A stretch of DNA of 43,372 bases from the sequence record NC_073321.1. One strand, written 5' to 3'. Shown here piece after piece: positions 8,064 to 39,077 of the stretch. This stretch comes from Escherichia phage ZCEC5. The first letter of the stretch is position 1. Every line of letters begins with the position of its first letter. The notes below the pieces were generated by a model. The model was not told the origin of the DNA and did not search any database. It saw nothing but the letters and a program-made list of their open reading frames with translations. The position numbers and the translations under genes were made by a program.

Positions 8064-8066
8064 TAA

Positions 8067-8093
8067 AAGGCCCCGTTAAGGGGCCTTAGTTTT
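8067..8093. terminator. Bidirectional intrinsic terminator
   Basis: AAGGCCCC-GTTAA-GGGGCCTT flanked by A-run and T-run; sits between convergent genes. Confidence 0.6.
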
Positions 8094-8316
8094 AAACTTC
8101 CACGTCTATTACCAAATCATCTGGTACGGTTATTACTATTTTATCGTTTTCATAGAATGGGTTAAGAGGCTCATTTTCAGGCTGCAGACGTAAAGTTATC
8201 TTTTTACCGCCAAGATAATTTATGTAACGAACCCAGTACCATTGGTCAAATACTTCCACCTTATCACCTGGGCATACGTCCGAGGCCTTCTTCTGATTCA
8301 TATATCTTACTGGCAT
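8092..8316 (-). CDS. Hypothetical protein (74 aa), opposite-strand accessory gene
   Basis: Perfect RBS AGGAGG, own promoter, terminated by the bidirectional hairpin. Confidence 0.55.
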   Translation of the reverse strand: MPVRYMNQKKASDVCPGDKVEVFDQWYWVRYINYLGGKKITLRLQPENEPLNPFYENDKIVITVPDDLVIDVEV

Positions 8317-8342
8317 ACATACCTCCTGTCTAAGTTAACTGA

Positions 8343-8371
8343 ATAGTAGCCTATTATGCTGGGGTGCGCAA
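8343..8371 (-). promoter_or_regulatory. Class B promoter TTGCGC-17-TACTAT containing palindrome AATAGGCTACTATT
   Basis: Near-identical copies at 16926-16954 (-), 39509-39537 (+) and 40677-40705 (+). Confidence 0.5.
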
Positions 8372-13528: not shown

Positions 13529-13941
13529 TGGGCTATTTCGAGGACTTAACAAAAGCGTTCGATGTGCCGCTGGTAGCCTTCGGAACAACCAACAGCATCA
13601 AAGTAGCGCTTGAAAACATCGACGCGCCGACGTCAACTGATACGCCGTATCTGGCAAGTTACATGTTACTGGCAGATACGGAACAGGCGGATTTGTTCTT
13701 CACGGAACAACGCTCTGGTATCTATCAGGTCGATATTAACTACGCATCGGTGAAAGGTAGCGCGCCAATCAATAAAATGGCAGACTTACTTAACACGGCG
13801 TTTAAAGCAGGTAAGTCATTTTCACGTAACGACATCTGCGCCGAGGTTCAATCGGTTAGCCTGGGGCCGCTGATTGTAGAAAACGGATGGGCCAAACGGC
13901 CATTGTCAATTAACTTTATCGCATTCACCAAGAGGCTGTGA
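13525..13941 (+). CDS. Tail terminator protein (putative)
   Basis: Position immediately upstream of major tail protein. Confidence 0.45.
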   Translation: MMGYFEDLTKAFDVPLVAFGTTNSIKVALENIDAPTSTDTPYLASYMLLADTEQADLFFTEQRSGIYQVDINYASVKGSAPINKMADLLNTAFKAGKSFSRNDICAEVQSVSLGPLIVENGWAKRPLSINFIAFTKRL

Positions 13942-13943
13942 AT

Positions 13944-15110
13944 ATGGCTACAACTCCTTTTAAGGGCGCGAATACCGCGCAATTCTATGTGGCGGAAGTG
14001 ACCCCGGGCGTAACACCAAGTAACCCGGTCTGGTCGCCGTTGCGTAACACTGGCGGCGTTCCGGCCATTACCCGCGACACGCTGACCTCCAACGAACTGG
14101 ACGGCAGCCGTGAAACTACGTCCATCCGCACCGGTAACAAACAGGTTAGTGGAGAATATGCCATCGAGCTTAGCTCGAAAAGCCAGGACGACTGGTTGGC
14201 TGGGGCTTTAGGTTCTACGTGGCAATCCGGTGTATCCTTGACTGACCTGTCAATTACCGTAGCACCGGCAGGCAAGACGTTCACCCGTGCTGATGGCAGC
14301 TTCATTACTGACGGTGTGGAAGTAGGCGACCTGATTGCGTTCACCGACTTAACGGGTGATAACGCCAAACCGTTTATCGTTACTGCGGTAGAGGCACTGG
14401 TAGTTACCGGCGCGGGCATTCAGCACACCCTCACCACAGAGACAGCCACTACCGCGGCTAAAACCGGCGACAAACTGGAAACCGGTAGCCAGTGTAAGAC
14501 GTTCTCTATTCTCACCTGGTACAAAGGCCAGTGCGGCGGGGCTGACGCGTACACACTGACCAAAGGTGTGGAAGTTTCTGGTTTTACCATCGAACAGGCT
14601 GTTAACGCGATGGTAACTGGCAGCTTCCCGTTCATCGGTCGCAGTCAGGAGATTCTCGCCACGCAGCCGTCTGGTTCTGACTTCTCCTCTGTTACGTTTG
14701 GTGACGAGCCGTTCTCCTCGGTCGACGTTTCCGTGTTCGATGGCTCAACGCCGTTGCGCTGCGACAGCCTGACCATCACCAACGATAACAGCGCGTCCGC
14801 TCAGTTCGAACTGGGCAACACTAACGTAGCGTTTGTGGAGCGTAGCCGTGCGGCTAACACCTTCTCCATCTCCGGTAAGCTGTACGACATGGCGATGATT
14901 CAGAAGTTTATCAACGAGCAGCAGGTAGAGATTAACTCTATTCTGACGGGGGTAAACGGTGCTATGTCTTTCAGTTTGAAACGCGCAGAACTTACAGCGG
15001 TTACGCCAGAAATATCTGGCCCGGAATCAATTACGCAAAGCATAGAAGGACAGTCAACAGGTAACCAGTACCAGTCGTCTATCATTATTCAGCGCATCAC
15101 CTACGCATAA
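13944..15110 (+). CDS. Major tail protein
   Basis: 388 aa, T/S/G-rich, upstream of chaperone and tape measure genes; RBS AAGAGG (GTG at 13938 also possible). Confidence 0.65.
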   Translation: MATTPFKGANTAQFYVAEVTPGVTPSNPVWSPLRNTGGVPAITRDTLTSNELDGSRETTSIRTGNKQVSGEYAIELSSKSQDDWLAGALGSTWQSGVSLTDLSITVAPAGKTFTRADGSFITDGVEVGDLIAFTDLTGDNAKPFIVTAVEALVVTGAGIQHTLTTETATTAAKTGDKLETGSQCKTFSILTWYKGQCGGADAYTLTKGVEVSGFTIEQAVNAMVTGSFPFIGRSQEILATQPSGSDFSSVTFGDEPFSSVDVSVFDGSTPLRCDSLTITNDNSASAQFELGNTNVAFVERSRAANTFSISGKLYDMAMIQKFINEQQVEINSILTGVNGAMSFSLKRAELTAVTPEISGPESITQSIEGQSTGNQYQSSIIIQRITYA

Positions 15111-15114
15111 AACT

Positions 15115-15140
15115 AAGGCCCCGAAAGGGGCCTTTTTCTT
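15115..15140. terminator. Bidirectional intrinsic terminator
   Basis: AAGGCCCC-GAAA-GGGGCCTT followed by T5 on + and T4 on -. Confidence 0.6.
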
Positions 15141-15315
15141 ACTCACTTTTGAATGGCATTTCATAGAAGTTAGTTAACTGGCCTCGGTCACTTCGTTCTG
15201 TCGTTTCTTTTGAGGCCTCTTCCTTACTACCTACGGCGTAAATATCAACCCACTCATCCCATTCTTCGTCATATACGCGGATTACATATATTGTTTTCAT
15301 AATATTTTCACTCAT
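15139..15315 (-). CDS. Hypothetical small protein (about 58 aa)
   Basis: ORF-track 15139..15357 frame; ATG 15315 with RBS AGGAG. Confidence 0.4.
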   Translation of the reverse strand: MSENIMKTIYVIRVYDEEWDEWVDIYAVGSKEEASKETTERSDRGQLTNFYEMPFKSE

Positions 15316-15538
15316 CAATATTACTCCTGTACTCCCGTAACTTCTCCAGACTTTCAATTGCTTCTGCTAAGTCGGTTCCGGAGTCTTTGTGACCGCGCAG
15401 ACCCATACACAGCAGTTTCTTTAACGCATGCTGTAGCGCCGGGTCACGGATATCGAAGGCGCGTAGCACATCATAGACGTCTACTGTCATGGTGCTGCCG
15501 TGGGTGTTTGTCATTGTGCGGTTGTATTTTGAAGTCAT
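15308..15538 (-). CDS. Hypothetical protein (76 aa)
   Basis: ATGA-coupled to upstream metallophosphoesterase gene. Confidence 0.45.
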   Translation of the reverse strand: MTSKYNRTMTNTHGSTMTVDVYDVLRAFDIRDPALQHALKKLLCMGLRGHKDSGTDLAEAIESLEKLREYRSNIDE

Positions 15539-16665
15539 CCCAGCATCTCCGGTGAAATAGTTAAACGTGCGACCTCGCCATATTCGGCGCTATAAGTAAT
15601 CACATTTGCGCTACGGCCTGACATCCATCCGCCTCTGGATGCGTAGGCGTCTTTGGCCGCTAAGGTGCGGTGTTGCTCAACAATCATATTACGGCTTTCT
15701 ACAATCTTCTGGTGGTGCAGGTGGCCTACGTGGGCGTAGCTGTAAACACTCTCGCCGAACGCTTTGCGGAACTTAGCAATCATAACCGGTTCGATAGCAT
15801 CGAATCGTGCTTTATGCCCGTGGTGAAAGAACAATGTCGTTTTGCCGTGCTGCACCATCTTATAAACATCCGGCGATGTATCCACGGTAACTCGGCTGTC
15901 TTTTGAGTATAAAGTCGTGAACATTTCAGCCAGCCATACGGAGCCGACAGGGTCGTGATTTCCTTGCACGATAAGCAAGCGAACATTTTTGTGCTTAACG
16001 AGGGCCATATCGACAACACGGCGGACCATACGAATCATGTAGCGGACCAGTTTCTGGTAGCGGGTATCCGCATCCAACACATGGCGCGACTCCGGCGTAA
16101 CGGCATCAAGACTATCAAAGTGCGCGAAGTCCCCCAGCAGGTTAATAACTCCTGTTCCTGCATCTGGTGCTTTCTGAAACGCAGCATCGAACCACCGAGA
16201 GAACAGGTCTTCCGCAATCTTCATATCCCAGTCGTCGCCGCTCTCGTCCGCCCACGCCAGCATACCGAGATGAAAATCAGATACCGTGTAAAGATTGAGT
16301 AGCTTGTCGTCGCGTTTAGCGCGGGCGGCTTTAACAGGCGCAACGGGGGTAATCTCTGACTTCATGCCTTCAACCACGGCTTTCATCAACTCAATCTGCC
16401 GTTCGGCATCGGTGTCGGTCTTAACCCATTGCAACTTAGTGTTGCCAAACTCGTCCACCAGGGACGACGTTCCTTTAATTTTGTAGCCGTCCGGCACAAG
16501 GTGGCTAACGTCGCGCCCGTGGCCTACGCCTTTCTTAGCTAGCTTCGCTTTACGAATACGAATAACGCGGTCGGAGATGCCGTATTTACGGGCGATATCG
16601 ATAATTTTTGTTCCGGCGTTCAATTCTTCCTGTAGCTGTTCGTCGGTTATTTTCTTCTGGGCCAT
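15535..16665 (-). CDS. HTH-domain protein fused to Mre11/SbcD-like calcineurin-type metallophosphoesterase
   Basis: Motifs I-V in order: YTVSDFHLG, LLGDFAHFD, VQGNHD, FHHGH, VGHLHH; N-terminal helix-turn-helix-like region (IIDIARKYGISDRVIRIRK); RBS GAGGAAG. Confidence 0.7.
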   Translation of the reverse strand: MAQKKITDEQLQEELNAGTKIIDIARKYGISDRVIRIRKAKLAKKGVGHGRDVSHLVPDGYKIKGTSSLVDEFGNTKLQWVKTDTDAERQIELMKAVVEGMKSEITPVAPVKAARAKRDDKLLNLYTVSDFHLGMLAWADESGDDWDMKIAEDLFSRWFDAAFQKAPDAGTGVINLLGDFAHFDSLDAVTPESRHVLDADTRYQKLVRYMIRMVRRVVDMALVKHKNVRLLIVQGNHDPVGSVWLAEMFTTLYSKDSRVTVDTSPDVYKMVQHGKTTLFFHHGHKARFDAIEPVMIAKFRKAFGESVYSYAHVGHLHHQKIVESRNMIVEQHRTLAAKDAYASRGGWMSGRSANVITYSAEYGEVARLTISPEMLG

Positions 16666-16703
16666 GCTTACTTCCTCGTGTTTAGGATTTGTCCTATACT
16701 AGC

Positions 16704-16910
16704 TCACTTCTCGTTAACATTCGAGTTGCACGCCCAGATTAAAATAAATACCCACGGCAGCAGAACCCAACCAAGAAACAGGTTAGCCATGAATATAGCT
16801 AACTTCGCTTTATGGTTACGGAAGTACGCAACCAGGAAAGGTGCGAAATAAGCGAGCAGTGCAAACAGAATTAAGGAAACTGGTAAACTGGACATTTTAA
16901 ACCCCTTCAT
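16704..16910 (-). CDS. Superinfection immunity (Imm-like) membrane protein
   Basis: Two TM helices with pattern YFAPFLVAYFRNHKAKLAIFMANLFLGWVLLPWVFILIWA, recalled to match the T4 Imm-like family; start possibly at 16895 (RBS AAGGGG). Confidence 0.55.
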   Translation of the reverse strand: MKGFKMSSLPVSLILFALLAYFAPFLVAYFRNHKAKLAIFMANLFLGWVLLPWVFILIWACNSNVNEK

Positions 16911-16925
16911 TGTTGGTGTGAGTGA

Positions 16926-16954
16926 ATAGTACCCTATTATATTGGGGTGCGCAA
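16926..16954 (-). promoter_or_regulatory. Class B promoter TTGCGC-17-TACTAT driving the Imm/metallophosphoesterase island
   Basis: Shares 30/33 positions with the promoter at 8339-8371. Confidence 0.5.
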
Positions 16955-17019
16955 GTAATGTGATAGAATAATTTTGCGCCTAGTGTCGCACACGAAAAGC
17001 GGGTGGTTCCCGTCTGGCG

Positions 17020-17055
17020 CATTTACCATTTACCATTAACCTGTAACCTCTTAAC
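17020..17055 (+). repeat. Five tandem heptamer repeats (CATTTAC CATTTAC CATTAAC CTGTAAC CTCTTAAC)
   Basis: Direct tandem 7-8-mers immediately upstream of the tail assembly chaperone gene. Confidence 0.4.
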
Positions 17056-17069
17056 CAAAGGACTAAAGA

Positions 17070-17486
17070 ATGAAACTTTCTGATTTTTATTTCGAAGAGA
17101 AAGCACTGGTAGGCAAGAAGATGCCGATTCTGCTGCCAAACGGCGAAGACTCCGGTGAGTGGCTTAACGTCGTAAGCCCTGACGCAGATGTCGCCGTTAA
17201 AGCGGGGCGTGCTTTCATTATCGCGTACCGACGCGGGTTGGCGCGCTTTGAAGAACTGGAAAAAGCCGCCAAAGAATCCGGCGACTATACTGAATATAAT
17301 TTGGCCATTAACGAACTGGCGGAAGACCTCAACCGGCAACTTGCGGCGGAAGTCGTAAACGGCTGGAGCTTTGACGAGCCTTTCTCTAAGGAAGCGTTTA
17401 ACAAGTTGCTCGACCAGTTCAAGGCATTAGGCACACAGGTAGCCGCGTTCCATAACGCTGAGCGCAAAGCATTACAGGAAAAGTAG
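17070..17486 (+). CDS. Tail assembly chaperone (gpG-like)
   Basis: 138 aa acidic protein directly upstream of tape measure; followed by -1 frame ORF. Confidence 0.55.
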   Translation: MKLSDFYFEEKALVGKKMPILLPNGEDSGEWLNVVSPDADVAVKAGRAFIIAYRRGLARFEELEKAAKESGDYTEYNLAINELAEDLNRQLAAEVVNGWSFDEPFSKEAFNKLLDQFKALGTQVAAFHNAERKALQEK

Positions 17487-17851
17487 ACGCGCTGTACAGG
17501 TTCGCCTCCTACGAGTTTGTGGATAAGCATAAAATCATAGAGTTTGATTCTATAGCCGACGGTCACGAACAGGCGCTTATCGCAATGGGTGTAATCGATA
17601 AGAAAAAACGTGCAGCGCGACGGGGTGGGCCAGAATGCCCGCCCCTTTTTATATCCACCTTTGAGATGTACTGTGACATTAAGTTTACGCGACACGTGCG
17701 CGAGGACGCTGTAGTATTGTTCGCAAGAGAATCCGTTACTTGGCAAGACCTGAAAGCCTATCTCGATGTTACGCAAAAACAGCTTAGCCTGTTCGAGATA
17801 GACATTATCATGGGCTTAGAAGCAATCTTTGAAGGTAGAAACAATGACTGA
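17462..17851 (+). CDS. Tail assembly chaperone -1 frameshift extension (gpGT-like), candidate
   Basis: -1 frame open from 17462, overlaps last 8 codons of the G ORF and ends overlapping the tape-measure start; weak slippery site CAG GAA AAG TAG. Confidence 0.35.
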   Translation, partial: AQSITGKVDALYRFASYEFVDKHKIIEFDSIADGHEQALIAMGVIDKKKRAARRGGPECPPLFISTFEMYCDIKFTRHVREDAVVLFARESVTWQDLKAYLDVTQKQLSLFEIDIIMGLEAIFEGRNND

Positions 17852-29477: not shown

Positions 29478-29936
29478 CTATTCTCTCGCCGCGCAGACCA
29501 CTTTGTACGCTTCCTCCTTTGTCGAAAAAGCACCGAGATATATGCGCTTCCCGTTCACGGTTATCCTTGCCCTAAATTTACCTCTTTCAGGCGATACCCC
29601 CTTTAAACATGAGGTGTTGTCGCGCCTTACCCTTGCGTTTCTGGTATTCTCCCACCTGGTCGCTAACCGCAGGTTGCAAATCCGATTATCCGCACGGTCG
29701 CCGTTTATATGGTCAACCTCCTCCGGCGGCATATCACCGTACACCCACCACCAAGCCAATCGGTGTGCCGGATAGTGGACGTTTCTGAACACAACTTTCA
29801 TATATCCAAGGTCAGTGTAGTTATTTATAACTTTCCCCGGAACAGACCGCGGGCCACTTCGCTTAACCCATTTGAATACCCCAGTATCAGGGTCGTACGA
29901 CAGAAAATCTTTTATATCGCCACTTGGTGCTTTCAT
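29478..29936 (-). CDS. HNH homing endonuclease with AP2-like DNA-binding domain
   Basis: DHINGDRADNRICNLR HNH motif; C-terminal AP2-like segment; N-terminal YDPDTGVFKW shared with two paralogs. Confidence 0.7.
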   Translation of the reverse strand: MKAPSGDIKDFLSYDPDTGVFKWVKRSGPRSVPGKVINNYTDLGYMKVVFRNVHYPAHRLAWWWVYGDMPPEEVDHINGDRADNRICNLRLATRWENTRNARVRRDNTSCLKGVSPERGKFRARITVNGKRIYLGAFSTKEEAYKVVCAARE

Positions 29937-30018
29937 AATACACACCCCTCACGTTTCGTGTGTTCAATCCCGCAGCGCGGACAGATTCGACAATCTTCTT
30001 CATAAAACCAGTAAATTT

Positions 30019-33300: not shown

Positions 33301-34538
33301 TCTAAATCCTCCTCTGTAACTTGATTCCACTCAGGACGTGTGTCATCCGCCGTTGCGACGCATGGCGCACCGGGCTTACGGGTAATGAAGTCTTTCAGTT
33401 CTTCTTCCGGTACAATTTTAACCGCTTCGGTCGGTGTCATAAGAACTACCTTTTGCAGCATAGTACCGTACTTCTCGAATACTGCGTCGGTATCTTTCCA
33501 CGCACGATTACCGGGGCGACCTTCAACCAGTTTGTATCCTGGCACTTTCTTACCTGAATGCAAAGCAGCAGCCATCGCTTTCTCAACCTTGTCGATGTGC
33601 TGGCGCAACAACGGCAGCTTCTCATACTCAGCGACGAGTTGCTCTGGCGTAAGTTCCAGCGCACAGTCGTCCTCAAGTTCTTCCGCCAGTACCGCGTTAA
33701 CGGTTTTTGTACGAGCTGCGCACTGTTCCGAGAAACGACACCACTGACAACCATCTACCGACGGCTTGAAGTCCGACGCTTTAAGGTTCTTCTTGCCGCG
33801 GTTATAGGCATCAAGTGCTAACAGTGCACGTTTCTGTGCGAACTTAGCGAACAGTTCCAGACCTTCAACCGAGATGTCCCACTCCGACGCGCCACCAGCG
33901 TACGGCTGAAAGATGACCAGACGAACGGTTGTTATGTTATAACGTCTCTTGAGTCGGCGATAAACACCGAGAGCGTAAAGCATAAGCTGCTTGTTTTCTT
34001 TCGCTTCGACACGATGTCGTCCTGTTTTCAGGTCGCCAATAATGAGCATGTACTCGTCGGTGTTAGCCAGTTCCTGAACGGCAACAAGGTCGGCGGTTCC
34101 GAAGGTTTCAACGCCTTCGTAACCTGGGTGCAATACCTCAGTAAGGTTAACGCGCATCTCGAGCTTGGCGTAAGTAGCTACATCGATAATCGGTTTGCAG
34201 TAGTCTGTGTACTTGCGCACCTGCTCAATCATATCCGCCGTAATCAGTACCGCGCCTTTCATCGGGCTGATTAGCGCCTTAATCTGACCTTTACCCTCAT
34301 CCAGCACGTAAGCGCCGACTTCACGCTCTAACGGCAACGCAGTGCCTTTTATATACTGGTTTAGATGGACCTCAGCTATAGTGTGACATGCGGTTCCTGT
34401 AACTGCGGATTTACCAGACGTGTTAGGAATATCTTTTTCACAGGCCAGTGATGCAGCGCATGACAGCCACTTTTTAGCCCCGGACGGCGACAGTAAAGCG
34501 TGTACGTCGTTATTGCCACCGCGTTCTTTTAGAATCAT
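33297..34538 (-). CDS. DUF2800-like PD-(D/E)xK nuclease with C-terminal Cys cluster (Cas4/RecB-like)
   Basis: N-terminal LLSPSGAKKWLSC, catalytic-type GDLKTG, C-terminal CQWCRFSEQC. Confidence 0.7.
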   Translation of the reverse strand: MILKERGGNNDVHALLSPSGAKKWLSCAASLACEKDIPNTSGKSAVTGTACHTIAEVHLNQYIKGTALPLEREVGAYVLDEGKGQIKALISPMKGAVLITADMIEQVRKYTDYCKPIIDVATYAKLEMRVNLTEVLHPGYEGVETFGTADLVAVQELANTDEYMLIIGDLKTGRHRVEAKENKQLMLYALGVYRRLKRRYNITTVRLVIFQPYAGGASEWDISVEGLELFAKFAQKRALLALDAYNRGKKNLKASDFKPSVDGCQWCRFSEQCAARTKTVNAVLAEELEDDCALELTPEQLVAEYEKLPLLRQHIDKVEKAMAAALHSGKKVPGYKLVEGRPGNRAWKDTDAVFEKYGTMLQKVVLMTPTEAVKIVPEEELKDFITRKPGAPCVATADDTRPEWNQVTEEDLE

Positions 34539-35032
34539 TTCTCGTCTCCGTTAACTGTAAAGCCGTATTTAATTTCGGCTTGCCTACGAGCCTTAGCTGC
34601 GTTCTCTAATTTATCGTAAGCCCCTAAATAAATCGGCGTACCGTCTACATAAATTCTTGCAACCCACTTACCGCAGCGTTTATGAAACCCAACACCTTTA
34701 ACCCCTGAAGTATTGTCAGCCCGTACGCTGGTGCCGTGTGCGATGCTACCTCGACGCATTTTTATAAGATTTTCTATCCTGTTATCAGTTCTATCTTTAT
34801 TTTCGTGACGAATTACTTCCCCCGGCGCTATCGGCCCGTTAAACATCTCCCAAACAACGTGGTGGATAAGTTTAGTAGCACCGTTAAAACGCAGTATTTT
34901 AAATTCACTCCCATCGTTATCCACCCTCGTACTGCCGGCTTCCTGTCCTATTTTTACAGATTTTGACGGGCTTATTTTCCAAAACAATTTACCTGTATCA
35001 CGGTCGTAGTCAAAAACTTCACGCCAATTCAT
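34535..35032 (-). CDS. HNH-AP2 homing endonuclease paralog (degenerate HNH motif)
   Basis: N-terminal FDYDRDTGKLFWK; HNH region reads IRHENKDRTDNRIENL; C-terminal AP2-like YLGAYDKLENAAKARR; ATG 35032 overlaps upstream stop. Confidence 0.6.
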   Translation of the reverse strand: MNWREVFDYDRDTGKLFWKISPSKSVKIGQEAGSTRVDNDGSEFKILRFNGATKLIHHVVWEMFNGPIAPGEVIRHENKDRTDNRIENLIKMRRGSIAHGTSVRADNTSGVKGVGFHKRCGKWVARIYVDGTPIYLGAYDKLENAAKARRQAEIKYGFTVNGDEK

Positions 35033-35301
35033 GCCAAAGTCTCCCACTGGTCAATTAAATGTCGTGTCTGGTGATGGCAATGCATGGCCCACCCGTACAT
35101 CGACTCGAAGACATAAAAGTCAGGTTTGGCGAAAGTCGTGCGCTTAATCTGCGACACGTGACGGCCTATATCTTTAGGCCGTGGTACTTTGCCTAAGTAC
35201 GCCATCTCTTCCATCTGGTGCGCACCGGACGGCGCACGCAACAGCCACAACGCCTCTGTGTTATCCCGCCTGTCAACGGCGCGGTAGAGTTGGTAAACCA
35301 T
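35029..35301 (-). CDS. Hypothetical protein (90 aa)
   Basis: RBS GAGGG; His-rich segment HCHHQTRH. Confidence 0.45.
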   Translation of the reverse strand: MVYQLYRAVDRRDNTEALWLLRAPSGAHQMEEMAYLGKVPRPKDIGRHVSQIKRTTFAKPDFYVFESMYGWAMHCHHQTRHLIDQWETLA

Positions 35302-35912: not shown

Positions 35913-35941
35913 ACTATAATAGCGAACTATTCACGTGTCAA
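35913..35941 (-). promoter_or_regulatory. Class A promoter TTGACA-17-TATAGT with palindrome AATAGCGAACTATT
   Basis: Divergent from the Cro-like gene promoter. Confidence 0.55.
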
Positions 35942-36005: not shown

Positions 36006-36221
36006 ATGCAACCATCTGAACTAGGCATCCGTGTAGAACAACGCCGTAAAGAACTCGGCATCTCCCAGCGCCGTCTGGCTGTCCTGACCGGAGTTTCCCA
36101 GGGCGCGATTAACCAGCTTGCGCTCGGAGTAACTCAGGACGTCCGCCCGGCGACGCTGTTTAAACTGGCGGAAGTGCTTGAAGTAGACGCCAAGTGGCTG
36201 GCGTTAGGTGAAGGGGCTTAA
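36006..36221 (+). CDS. HTH XRE-family (Cro/C1-type) transcriptional regulator
   Basis: 71 aa; LGISQRRLAVLTGVSQGAINQL helix-turn-helix; strong RBS AAGGAG. Confidence 0.75.
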   Translation: MQPSELGIRVEQRRKELGISQRRLAVLTGVSQGAINQLALGVTQDVRPATLFKLAEVLEVDAKWLALGEGA

Positions 36222-38537: not shown

Positions 38538-38771
38538 TTATTCCAGGTCTTCTAAAGTAGCGGTCATTCCGCGAACTTCAGCAACAGCACTATATTTCCC
38601 GCCAACATTTTTCACGACACCAGATTTAACCAGCACTTTCAACGACCCTTCAATAATGGCTGAACTATAGTACTTAAAATAACTACGGCGCAAGTCGATA
38701 ACGCTGCACGACCCTTTTTTACGTGTTAACGAAACTACCGCCGTAAATACGCGTGACTGGAACTCGGTCAT
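38538..38771 (-). CDS. Hypothetical protein (77 aa) with C-terminal TLEDLE tail
   Basis: ATGA-coupled; C-terminus resembles those of the primase and DUF2800 proteins. Confidence 0.45.
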   Translation of the reverse strand: MTEFQSRVFTAVVSLTRKKGSCSVIDLRRSYFKYYSSAIIEGSLKVLVKSGVVKNVGGKYSAVAEVRGMTATLEDLE

Positions 38772-38938
38772 TTAACGTTCTCCTTAATCCACGCTTCCAC
38801 TTTCTCCGGGTCAAACGTACCAGGCTGCCGGCGGCCCATAATGCGGATACAACAATCTGGGAACTTCCCGCTCTTTAACCAGTTATTCAGTGTGCGACGA
38901 GTAACCCCGATACGCTCGGCTACCTCATTCTGCGTCAT
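38768..38938 (-). CDS. Small HTH DNA-binding protein (AlpA/excisionase-like)
   Basis: MTQNEVAERIGVTRRTLNNWLKSGKFP; ATG 38938 with RBS AAGGAG (ORF-track frame 38768..39016). Confidence 0.5.
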   Translation of the reverse strand: MTQNEVAERIGVTRRTLNNWLKSGKFPDCCIRIMGRRQPGTFDPEKVEAWIKENVK

Positions 38939-39077
38939 CTTTAATCTCCTTAATTGTTTCCCATGCGAACGCTGTAGCTGTGCCGTATTTATTAGGGCAG
39001 TATCTGCTCTCGCCATGTCCGTTAAACCACGCTTCTATCAGCAACTCTTTCAACTGTTCTTCTGTCAAAGTAACCAT
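38925..39077 (-). CDS. Hypothetical small protein (50 aa), first gene of leftward early operon
   Basis: ATG 39077 with RBS GAGGG; the ORF-track TTG start at 39110 overlaps the -10 hexamer. Confidence 0.4.
   Translation of the reverse strand: MVTLTEEQLKELLIEAWFNGHGESRYCPNKYGTATAFAWETIKEIKDDAE

Follow-up and report, generated by a model that had tools for sequence, protein, structure and literature searches.

Layout and control elements of the cassette

The window, by which we mean the whole stretch of 43,372 nucleotides of Escherichia phage ZCEC5 (NC_073321.1) that was analysed, belongs to a Kagunavirus-like (Guernseyvirinae) E. coli siphophage. Between its tail tube gene and its tail assembly chaperone genes, four ORFs are located on the minus strand. 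These ORFs, a predicted promoter and a terminator were all found, in agreement with a preliminary description of an opposite-strand block inside the tail operon. The features are listed by position.

13938-15110, plus strand: tail tube gene (PF18906, E 1e-38)
15115-15134, both strands: bidirectional intrinsic terminator hairpin, common to the tail tube gene and the cassette
15139-15357 as ORF, more likely 15139-15315 from an ATG, minus strand: last cassette ORF (58 aa), no function assigned
15308-15538, minus strand: conserved small ORF (76 aa), no function assigned
15535-16665, stop codon included, minus strand: HTH-metallophosphoesterase ORF (376 aa; PHROG 704, T1 gp16 family)
15538-16311, minus strand: metallophosphoesterase (MPE) catalytic domain (residues 119-376, motifs I-V)
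16534-16644, minus strand: N-terminal three-helix HTH domain (residues 8-44)
16704-16910, minus strand: Imm-family ORF (68 aa as first called)
16923-16940, minus strand: palindromic operator-like site ATAATAGGGTACTATTCA with the core AATAG-N4-CTATT, overlapping the spacer and the -10 element of the promoter
16926-16954, minus strand: predicted cassette promoter, TTGCGC (16954-16949), N17, TACTAT (16931-16926), by consensus match
17070-17486 and 17519-17851, plus strand: tail assembly chaperone genes

The terminator hairpin, AAGGCCCC-TTTC-GGGGCCTT, has an 8-bp stem with six G-C pairs and a T-run on both strands. Its folding energies of -16.3 and -18.7 kcal/mol (z about -4.0 on both strands) support the bidirectional terminator that had been described. 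With regard to the promoter, a generic scan returned a different, overlapping site (ATCACA-N17-TATAAT), and the number of promoter-like sites in the region (four) is not above the 2.8 expected from shuffled sequence. We favour the predicted promoter at 16926-16954, from which transcription would start near 16919, because its layout, TTGC[A/G]C-N17-TACTAT with a palindrome inside it and an RBS and ATG after it, recurs at 8340 (minus strand), 39523 (plus strand) and 40691 (plus strand). The arrangement of promoter and palindrome is also conserved in K1G, DUEC01, Bas74 and Jersey. The cassette thus appears to have a promoter of its own, as had been proposed, and this promoter would be of the phage's own repeated type.

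The palindrome core occurs in seven exact copies in the window, where 0.02 would be expected, and the complete 18-mer in eight copies at two or fewer mismatches (0.07 expected). Copies are further found in the promoters of right-arm genes and in those that drive SSB and phrog_3127. A gene for an XRE/Cro-type protein (36006-36221) adjoins tandem copies of the palindrome, and the cassette is probably controlled by this XRE-type repressor of the phage itself. The HTH-phosphoesterase was considered as the palindrome binder and set aside, given the XRE/Cro-type gene beside the tandem copies; T1, moreover, carries the enzyme and lacks the motif. Since the cassette promoter shares its operator with replication-gene promoters, the cassette would be part of the phage's own regulatory circuit. 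This common operator, together with a GC content of 0.473-0.492 that falls inside the range of the window (0.41-0.56), argues against the idea of an inserted or foreign cassette. Kagunavirus is used as a synthetic-biology chassis, and the common operator offers a handle on its gene regulation. No Rfam family or tRNA was matched anywhere in the window, and a conserved block at 16975-17020 folds no better than shuffled sequence (z -1.4).

The Imm-family protein scores above the threshold of the Pfam profile Imm_superinfect (PF14373; E 9.3e-13, 48.3 bits compared to a cut-off of 27.9) and matches phrog_1039 (E 1e-22). Its 19-residue Kyte-Doolittle hydropathy profile has two peaks, 2.33 at residues 9-27 and 2.17 at residues 39-58, and the sequence RNHKAK separates the two hydrophobic segments. 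The assignment as an Imm-like protein with two transmembrane segments therefore stands. Translation probably starts at the second ATG at 16895, giving 63 aa; this start is preferred because of the RBS GAAGGGG and the agreement with the K1G annotation. The protein is 100% identical to those of Bas74 and DUEC01 and 77% identical to that of Jersey. It resembles the T4 Imm family in its small size, the two transmembrane segments, the basic loop and the HMM score above the curated threshold, and it gives weak tblastn matches to 'immunity to superinfection' genes of T4-like Proteus phages. In contrast to T4 Imm, it is encoded by a siphovirus and is shorter (63-68 aa), and its exclusion role is a prediction from sequence. 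Superinfection immunity conferred by Imm alone is plausible.

The two small ORFs lie downstream of the enzyme gene. The 76-aa ORF aligns with the C-terminal portion of PHROG profiles that are longer than itself. We rejected the possibility that it is a remnant of the K1G ATPase gene: an intact, conserved 76-aa gene is present in Bas74, DUEC01 and Jersey, and its lack of similarity to the K1G ATP-binding protein also counts against this. The 58-aa ORF is 65% identical to a 52-aa ORF at the equivalent site of DUEC01, and no Pfam, PHROG, NCBIfam or PADLOC match was obtained for it. With the PADLOC-DB HMMs, none of the four cassette proteins gave a match at E <= 0.01, and an NCBIfam search returned nothing meaningful.

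Domains and predicted fold of the HTH-metallophosphoesterase

The 376-aa protein matches PHROG 704, 'DNA repair exonuclease', over its full length (E 2e-162). Alternative annotations within this family are 'calcineurin-like phosphoesterase', 'metallophosphoesterase' and 'wHTH domain protein'. Both the HTH region and the five phosphoesterase motifs that had been reported were found. In the predicted structure, the HTH fold is formed by helices at residues 8-16, 21-28 and 32-44. The family profile matches Lrp/AsnC-type HTH structures weakly (E 4.6e-4); among 69 relatives, 12 match Sigma70_r4_2 (best 1.5e-9) and 17 match HTH_1, with additional matches to GerE and HTH_8. Motifs I-V read SDFHLG, GDFAHFD, GNHD, HHGH and GHLHH, and D130, H132, G178, D179, N236, H237, H282, G314 and H317 are invariant in the 69 diverse relatives. 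The metal-binding and catalytic motifs DxH, GDxx[D/H], GNH[D/E], H and GHxH, present in this order, and the MPE fold of the predicted structure identify the protein as a calcineurin-like metallophosphoesterase. It stays below threshold in Pfam, with 22.6 bits for Metallophos_2 (cut-off 27) and 17.1 bits for Metallophos (cut-off 21.5), and only 13-14 of the 69 relatives match these models at E <= 0.01. Judging from these scores, the family has diverged beyond the reach of the curated models.

An initial homologue search yielded only proteins of at least 94% identity; the alignment for structure prediction came from a re-run with a profile built on representatives of 50%-identity clusters. The solved folds closest to the predicted structure are Mre11/SbcD nuclease domains, namely T. 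maritima Mre11 (3qg5, 6x1y), S. aureus SbcD (7dog) and E. coli SbcD (6s6v). The alignment spans about 190 of the about 258 residues in the catalytic domain, with 12-18% identity. PDB searches with the single sequence and with a profile gave no significant match to the enzyme, only weak HTH hits, and family profiles compared with PDB Mre11/SbcD entries reached E-values of 0.1-2.9 (T. maritima) over motifs I-II only. The likeness to Mre11/SbcD pointed out earlier is supported by the best-matching predicted fold, with sequence profiles that are not significant. Differences from Mre11/SbcD are also seen in the predicted structure. The ZCEC5 enzyme appears to lack the C-terminal Rad50-binding helices and to end at the MPE core, where strands at residues 353-370 are followed by a 4-residue helix up to residue 376 and no helix-loop-helix tail is present. 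At its N-terminus, it would add a module of HTH and beta-hairpin, which to our knowledge is not found in Mre11. Consistent with the preliminary description, no Rad50/SbcC-like ORF was detected, by position or PHROG match, among the window ORFs of at least 400 aa; these large ORFs are a helicase, a DNA polymerase, an exonuclease and a helicase-primase, and the others belong to the structural region, as assigned by position. The fold and profile matches further include the MPE-fold DNA nucleases of Pseudomonas putida (6nvo) and of archaeal PolD, in the latter case the DP1 exonuclease subunit.

Closer relatives are found among phage proteins. The Kagunavirus enzymes share 94-98% identity with the ZCEC5 protein, and T1 gp16 (ST16), also of PHROG 704, shares 44% identity with it over the whole length. 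The same architecture of HTH, beta-hairpin and MPE domain and the same invariant motifs are present in PHROG 704 and T1 gp16, with no structural difference. A phage-encoded MPE with the five motifs is also known from Cluster A mycobacteriophages: A10ZJ24 gp48 is expressed early, is linked to phage DNA replication, and is reported to have phosphodiesterase and nuclease activity, to damage host DNA and to blunt host defence (PMC12287305). We used Bxb1 gp47 as the homologue for comparison with this Cluster A MPE. It belongs to a different family, having about 255 aa and no HTH, and homology was rejected (hhalign probability 4.3%, with similarity only around GNHD, HGH and GHxH).

Conservation and gene neighbourhoods

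An equivalent cassette is present at the equivalent position in K1G, Bas74, DUEC01 and Jerseyvirus, and variation among relatives is confined to the genes that follow the enzyme. The island DNA matches 482 phage records, compared to 484 for the island with its flanks. The preliminary description had called the cassette an accessory island, and had itself named conservation of the large protein at this position in relatives as speaking against its proposal; such conservation is what we observe. Nor is the system undescribed, as had been suggested: the large protein is an already annotated member of PHROG 704, and a pangenome analysis lists the gene as persistent in Drexlerviridae (PMC13164509). 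Its domain calls, promoter, terminator and missing Rad50 partner hold, but the accessory-defence framing does not. The cassette is a standard, annotated feature across a phage subfamily and not a new accessory defence system. It is ordinary for Kagunavirus and Jerseyvirus, with no case to be made for a new defence or anti-defence island.

PHROG 704 is held by Kagunavirus, Jerseyvirus, Dhillonvirus, Drexlerviridae and others. Homologues of the enzyme were found in 2,036 phage records, and the family comprises 4,576 clusters at 50% identity (E <= 0.001). Homologues of Imm were found in 362 phage records, and from these two counts it follows that the two genes mostly occur apart, which speaks against the earlier view of Imm and the enzyme as a coupled pair. 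With about 2,000 genomes, the enzyme family ranks among the most widespread core genes in T1-like, Jersey-like and Dhillon-like phages. It is of interest for its combination of an intact active site with a regulator-type HTH. The gene is persistent in several groups of therapeutic phages, with T1 and the BASEL phages Bas74 and Bas70-76 as tractable models. In our literature search, no biochemical or genetic study of the PHROG 704 enzyme family was found.

The placement of the enzyme gene differs between lineages. In Guernseyvirinae it is on the opposite strand inside the tail operon, whereas T1-like phages carry it ahead of their lysis cassette. It is followed in K1G and Webervirus by two genes that encode a T4-Pnk-like phosphatase (PNK) and a P-loop dNMP-kinase-like ATPase. 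Neighbours elsewhere are SSB in a Vibrio phage, a DNA ligase and a Holliday-junction resolvase in a Campylobacter phage, and thymidylate synthase with dATP/dGTP pyrophosphohydrolase in DSS3phi2; DNA polymerase A and dGTP_diPhyd_N also occur. Homing endonucleases flank the enzyme gene in T1, Jersey and Burkholderia. Flanking homing endonucleases are typical of conserved phage genes.

Possible functions of the cassette

The analysis establishes which genes are present and that they are conserved, as well as the fold, the intact active site and the shared operator. As to function, we give about an even chance to the reading that the cassette is a lineage-wide operon of two functionally independent main genes, Imm and an HTH-phosphoesterase of DNA metabolism. 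This Guernseyvirinae operon would be transcribed leftward from a phage promoter with a replication-type operator. The Imm-family protein, in the inner membrane, most likely blocks the DNA entry of later-arriving related phages, and it would do so independently of the enzyme, as the two genes mostly occur apart. For the enzyme, it seems most likely that it acts on DNA, as a metal-dependent nuclease or phosphodiesterase in the DNA or nucleotide metabolism of the phage; it would bind DNA and cut phosphodiester bonds in nucleic acid during phage DNA metabolism. It may process replication or recombination intermediates, or it may break down host DNA to feed nucleotide salvage, for which the phage MPE mentioned above is a precedent (PMC12287305). 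A role in DNA metabolism is favoured because the neighbours in other phages are genes of DNA or nucleotide metabolism. That the protein is a core enzyme is favoured because of its conserved place, the breadth of the family, the invariant catalytic residues, the HTH and the operator shared with the SSB and phrog_3127 promoters, and also because homing endonucleases flank its gene.

Some observations count against this reading. The profiles fall short of significance for Mre11/SbcD, at E 0.1-0.4, and there is no Rad50 partner. A general nuclease would not usually carry an HTH of the sequence-specific type (sigma-70 region 4, LuxR, LysR). Several lineages have the gene just ahead of their lysis or packaging genes, a position that would suit a regulator as well.

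The preliminary description saw Imm and the HTH-phosphoesterase as one accessory superinfection-exclusion system, in which a membrane sensor or blocker cooperates with a nuclease that destroys incoming DNA. A nuclease beside an entry blocker is a sensible pair, and the two genes are adjacent and presumably co-transcribed from the one predicted promoter throughout Guernseyvirinae. We nevertheless consider this very improbable, since most enzyme genes have no Imm neighbour, as in T1, Webervirus, Dhillonvirus and the Vibrio, Roseobacter and Campylobacter phages, and T4-type phages, which have Imm homologues, do not appear among the phosphoesterase matches listed. In addition, the cassette is neither variably present in relatives nor compositionally foreign, and its promoter is part of the regulon of the phage itself. 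Quite unlikely, too, is a role of the enzyme as an anti-defence factor that degrades cyclic nucleotide immune signals or, together with PNK, serves as the 2',3'-cyclic phosphodiesterase in a pathway of RNA (tRNA) repair directed against anticodon nucleases. Bacterial Pnkp joins a kinase with a metallophosphoesterase, and the PNK and P-loop kinase-like genes next to the enzyme in K1G and Webervirus may recall this arrangement. A phage MPE with a counter-defence phenotype also exists (PMC12287305). However, PNK and kinase are missing from the ZCEC5 window, T1 encodes its PNK elsewhere, and no ligase is linked. In view of the HTH and of neighbours that belong to DNA metabolism, a DNA substrate is the better fit. 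Anti-defence genes usually have a patchy distribution, and conservation this close to universal across several families is atypical of them; no PADLOC or anti-defence family match was obtained either. The gene is also absent from the main text of a large defence-escape mutant screen that includes the related phage SECphi4.

The strongest rival, although unlikely, is that the enzyme is a late-gene transcription regulator that corresponds in function to a late activator or to lambda Q. Its HTH would find late promoters, and the enzyme domain would supply a catalytic or sensing step. The HTH is of types known from sequence-specific regulators, and there is a weak match to phrog_836, 'late transcriptional activator' (E 0.004). 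Gene positions point the same way: in lambdoid-type contigs the enzyme follows a nin-like region (NinB, RecA_dep_nuc and a small Metallophos gene) directly before the lysis/packaging genes, with no Q-family Pfam listed among its neighbours; in the Dhillonvirus SECphi4 it is immediately upstream of TerS, and in another locus (L018) between DNA polymerase and lysis genes. In 508 of 522 Drexlerviridae it is immediately upstream of the lysis cassette, as part of an exonuclease-holin-endolysin-spanin module (PMC13164509). On the other hand, the Guernseyvirinae gene, that of ZCEC5 included, does not adjoin lysis or packaging genes, and at two loci (L011 and L012) the enzyme's stop codon overlaps the next gene, so that a target promoter or terminator would have no space there. 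The invariant catalytic residues would be superfluous in a pure regulator, and the Campylobacter and RDJL homologues have no HTH. For the sole operator over-represented in the window, the XRE protein is the more convincing binder, and the early/late boundary is also where the last gene of a replication module would be expected. Likewise improbable is the broader proposal that the HTH-metallophosphoesterase is not a repair exonuclease but a sequence-specific, DNA-site-directed enzyme of the late switch, a late-gene regulator or a site-specific nuclease, in many siphophages and lambdoid prophages. If true, it would explain a near-universal core gene at the early/late boundary, beside lysis or packaging genes, in at least five unrelated lineages.

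Gene content and regulatory signals of the cassette

In megablast, the cassette region and the left 25 kb matched several hundred Guernseyvirinae phages. Because the best matches were the Kagunavirus genomes JSSK01, EP-B-K_E2, K1G, Bas74 and DUEC01 (~88-91% identity), the window is apparently the genome, complete or nearly so, of a Kagunavirus-like E. coli siphophage. Its plus strand carries the structural genes and its minus strand the replication module (26-38.5 kb), which comprises helicase, methyltransferase, DNA polymerase A, gp2.5-like SSB, exonuclease, helicase-primase and two inserted HNH homing-endonuclease genes (phrog_99; 29478-29945 and 34535-35047, both minus). HNH or GIY-YIG genes also directly adjoin the phosphoesterase gene in relatives. 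As the preliminary description proposed, an opposite-strand block of four ORFs was found between the tail genes:

13938-15110, plus: tail tube gene (PF18906)
15115-15134: terminator hairpin
15139-15315, minus: 58-aa ORF
15308-15538, minus: 76-aa ORF
15535-16665, minus: 376-aa HTH-phosphoesterase (the enzyme)
16704-16910, minus: two-TM Imm-like protein (Imm)
16923-16940: operator-like palindrome
16926-16954, minus: cassette promoter
17070-17486 and 17519-17851, plus: tail-chaperone ORFs

The hairpin is flanked by T-runs on both strands, in agreement with a bidirectional terminator. Six of its eight pairs are G-C, and its folding energies (-16.3 and -18.7 kcal/mol) are about four standard deviations better than those of shuffled sequences. 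In a generic promoter scan, promoters in the cassette region lacked statistical support and an overlapping ATCACA-N17-TATAAT was favoured. The proposed TTGCGC-N17-TACTAT is nevertheless independently supported, because the same layout, in which the -35/-10 pair encloses the palindrome and an RBS and ATG follow ~30 nt on, recurs at 8340(-), 39523(+) and 40691(+), and the site is kept in K1G, DUEC01, Bas74 and Jerseyvirus. A good RBS and agreement with the K1G annotation make the second ATG (16895) the more likely start of Imm. Just upstream of the promoter, a 45-nt block (16975-17020; GCGCCAGACGGGAACCACCCGCTTTTCGTGTGCGACACTAGGCGC on the minus strand) is near-invariant from Kagunavirus through Jerseyvirus. 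It folds no better than shuffled sequence (z -1.4); regulation of the rightward tail-chaperone and tape-measure genes is one possible role.

The palindrome core AATAG-N4-CTATT occurs seven times in the window, against 0.02 copies expected. Sites of the operator-like motif, whose longer form is ATAATAG-N3-ACTATTCA, lie at 598(-), 8340(-), 16923(-), 29176, 33086(+), 35916(+), 35960(+), 39523(+) and 40691(+). The motif is embedded in two promoter layouts, TTGCAC-N17-TACTAT in the motif direction and a near-consensus TTGACA-N17-TATAGT on the opposite strand before replication genes. Promoters of the latter type serve the SSB gene, the phrog_3127 gene and another minus-strand gene; right-arm promoters also contain the palindrome. 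The motif is absent from T1 and looks like the mark of a phage-wide regulon, to which the cassette belongs on sequence grounds. The window encodes two small HTH proteins:

36006-36221, plus: Cro/XRE-type HTH_3 protein, 71 aa (Pfam E 2.3e-12)
38768-39016, minus: second small HTH protein

The gene of the former is divergent and adjoins the tandem palindrome copies at 35916 and 35960, and its product is the best candidate for an operator-binding repressor. A second opposite-strand mini-cassette lies in the head-gene region (8064-8371):

8064-8091: hairpin terminator, closely similar to 15115-15134
8092-8316: 74-aa ORF, no family match
8340-8371, minus: promoter of the same type as that of the cassette

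Conservation of the cassette and of Imm

The cassette had been described as an accessory island and put forward as a candidate for an undescribed system, and neither view held. The same cassette occupies the same site in K1G, DUEC01, Bas74 and Jerseyvirus (with imm first and the enzyme second, oriented against the tail tube and chaperone genes that flank them), its GC content is unremarkable and its promoter is of the phage's own regulon. The island alone matched 482 records, compared with 484 for the island plus flanks. Hundreds of public genomes, K1G being the first, already have annotations for the cassette and for both of its main gene families, and the window is one more member, at 94-100% protein identity. 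Among relatives, only the genes that follow the enzyme vary.

Genes downstream of the enzyme
K1G (locus L001, 1740-2779): T4-Pnk-like phosphatase, P-loop ATP-binding (dNMP-kinase-like) protein
Webervirus KpV522 (locus L007, 5172-6232): T4-Pnk-like phosphatase, P-loop (dNMP-kinase-like) gene
Jersey: HNH-type gene, 76-aa gene, 223-aa gene
DUEC01, Bas74: small ORFs
Window (15139-15538, minus): 76-aa and 58-aa ORFs only

The 76-aa ORF is 89% identical to its Jerseyvirus counterpart, whereas the adjacent phosphoesterase is 54% identical, which suggests strong constraint or recent exchange. Its predicted fold, a beta-hairpin plus three helices, is confident, and a structural neighbour search returned no match. 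One database entry labels a homologue 'phosphodiesterase', but nothing in the analysis backs this label.

The Imm-like pattern noted earlier was confirmed by Pfam Imm_superinfect (48.3 bits, threshold 27.9). Imm also matches phrog_1039 'immunity to superinfection' and has a basic loop between two hydrophobic segments, so that every testable feature of the family was found. In tblastn, homologues occurred in 362 phage records, nearly all of them Guernseyvirinae; the imm genes of T4-like Proteus phages also matched, though weakly. Imm would presumably act in superinfection exclusion.

The HTH-phosphoesterase family and its possible function

The metallophosphoesterase domain of the 376-aa protein scores below the Pfam threshold, and PHROG 704 'DNA repair exonuclease' covers the protein end to end (E 2e-162). 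An exhaustive search placed 4,576 clusters at 50% identity in the family (E <= 0.001). All five phosphoesterase motifs reported previously are present. Since 69 diverse members, once aligned, show no variation at the metal-binding and catalytic residues of these motifs, the family is, as judged from sequence, one of active enzymes. An AlphaFold2 model built from 129 sequences (pLDDT 81.4, pTM 0.70) consists of an HTH of three helices (8-44), then a flexible linker, then a beta-hairpin and helix that are conserved (61-103), and lastly a catalytic domain (119-376). The proposed N-terminal HTH is further backed by weak profile matches to Lrp/AsnC-type HTH structures and by Pfam HTH matches of many relatives (Sigma70_r4_2, LysR, LuxR and Fis types).

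The Mre11/SbcD-like label holds for fold and motifs, which resemble the Mre11-type nuclease domain, but not for membership of that family proper. The Rad50-binding tail of Mre11/SbcD is missing, sequence profiles of the enzyme family do not reach Mre11 significantly, and the structural-match margin of Mre11/SbcD over other metallophosphoesterases is small for the predicted model. As stated before, no Rad50/SbcC gene was found in the window. One mycobacteriophage metallophosphoesterase is reported to damage host DNA and help phage replication (PMC12287305), but it is not homologous to the window enzyme at family level.

The enzyme family was found in 2,036 phage records, compared with 362 for Imm.

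Settings of the enzyme without Imm
T1: alone, ahead of HNH gene and lysis genes
Webervirus: followed by PNK and kinase-like gene
Dhillonvirus: between lysin and TerS
Vibrio phages: adjoins SSB
N4-like roseophage: adjoins thymidylate synthase and dATP/dGTP pyrophosphohydrolase
Campylobacter myophages: adjoins DNA ligase and resolvase; enzyme also without HTH
Lambdoid prophages, metagenomic contigs: enzyme without Imm

Because the enzyme occurs without Imm in so many settings, their pairing is, by gene content, a lineage-specific adjacency and no conserved two-gene system. In a 2026 pangenome analysis, 508 of 522 Drexlerviridae carried an exonuclease-holin-endolysin-spanin module, and PNK and dNMP kinase were the most frequent genes after the exonuclease (PMC13164509). 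In several unrelated lineages (loci L010-L012, L018-L020, L013 and L004), the immediate neighbours of the phosphoesterase gene are the lysis cassette or terminase genes, and a dGTP/dATP pyrophosphohydrolase gene is often nearby.

A literature search found no experimental paper on the HTH-phosphoesterase family. We give an even chance to a DNA-binding, phosphodiester-hydrolysing enzyme of phage DNA and nucleotide metabolism, in view of the conserved operon, the intact active site, the Mre11-like fold of the model, the HTH, neighbours from DNA and nucleotide metabolism, and a promoter that, by its shared palindrome, appears co-regulated with replication genes. The enzyme would bind DNA via its HTH and hydrolyse phosphodiester bonds, its substrate being either host DNA or intermediates of replication or recombination. 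This would feed nucleotide salvage, a role that would fit the linked PNK, dNMP-kinase-like and dGTP-pyrophosphohydrolase genes. The main rival, a late-gene regulator, seems unlikely; it would account for an HTH of regulator type and for the gene's repeated placement immediately ahead of lysis or packaging genes, and in lambdoid contigs the gene occupies the expected slot of a Q-like late regulator. Less well supported are an anti-defence phosphodiesterase or RNA-repair factor, which we regard as rather improbable, and the coupled exclusion system of Imm and enzyme envisaged in the preliminary description, which is very improbable given how often the enzyme occurs without Imm.

The loop after motif II (residues 182-202, HFDSLDAVTPESRHVLDADTR) has the lowest confidence in the model, yet many of its residues are family-specific invariants in the aligned relatives (H182, D184, T190, P191, L197, D198, D200 and R202). 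One possibility is that the loop is a flexible element that binds substrate.
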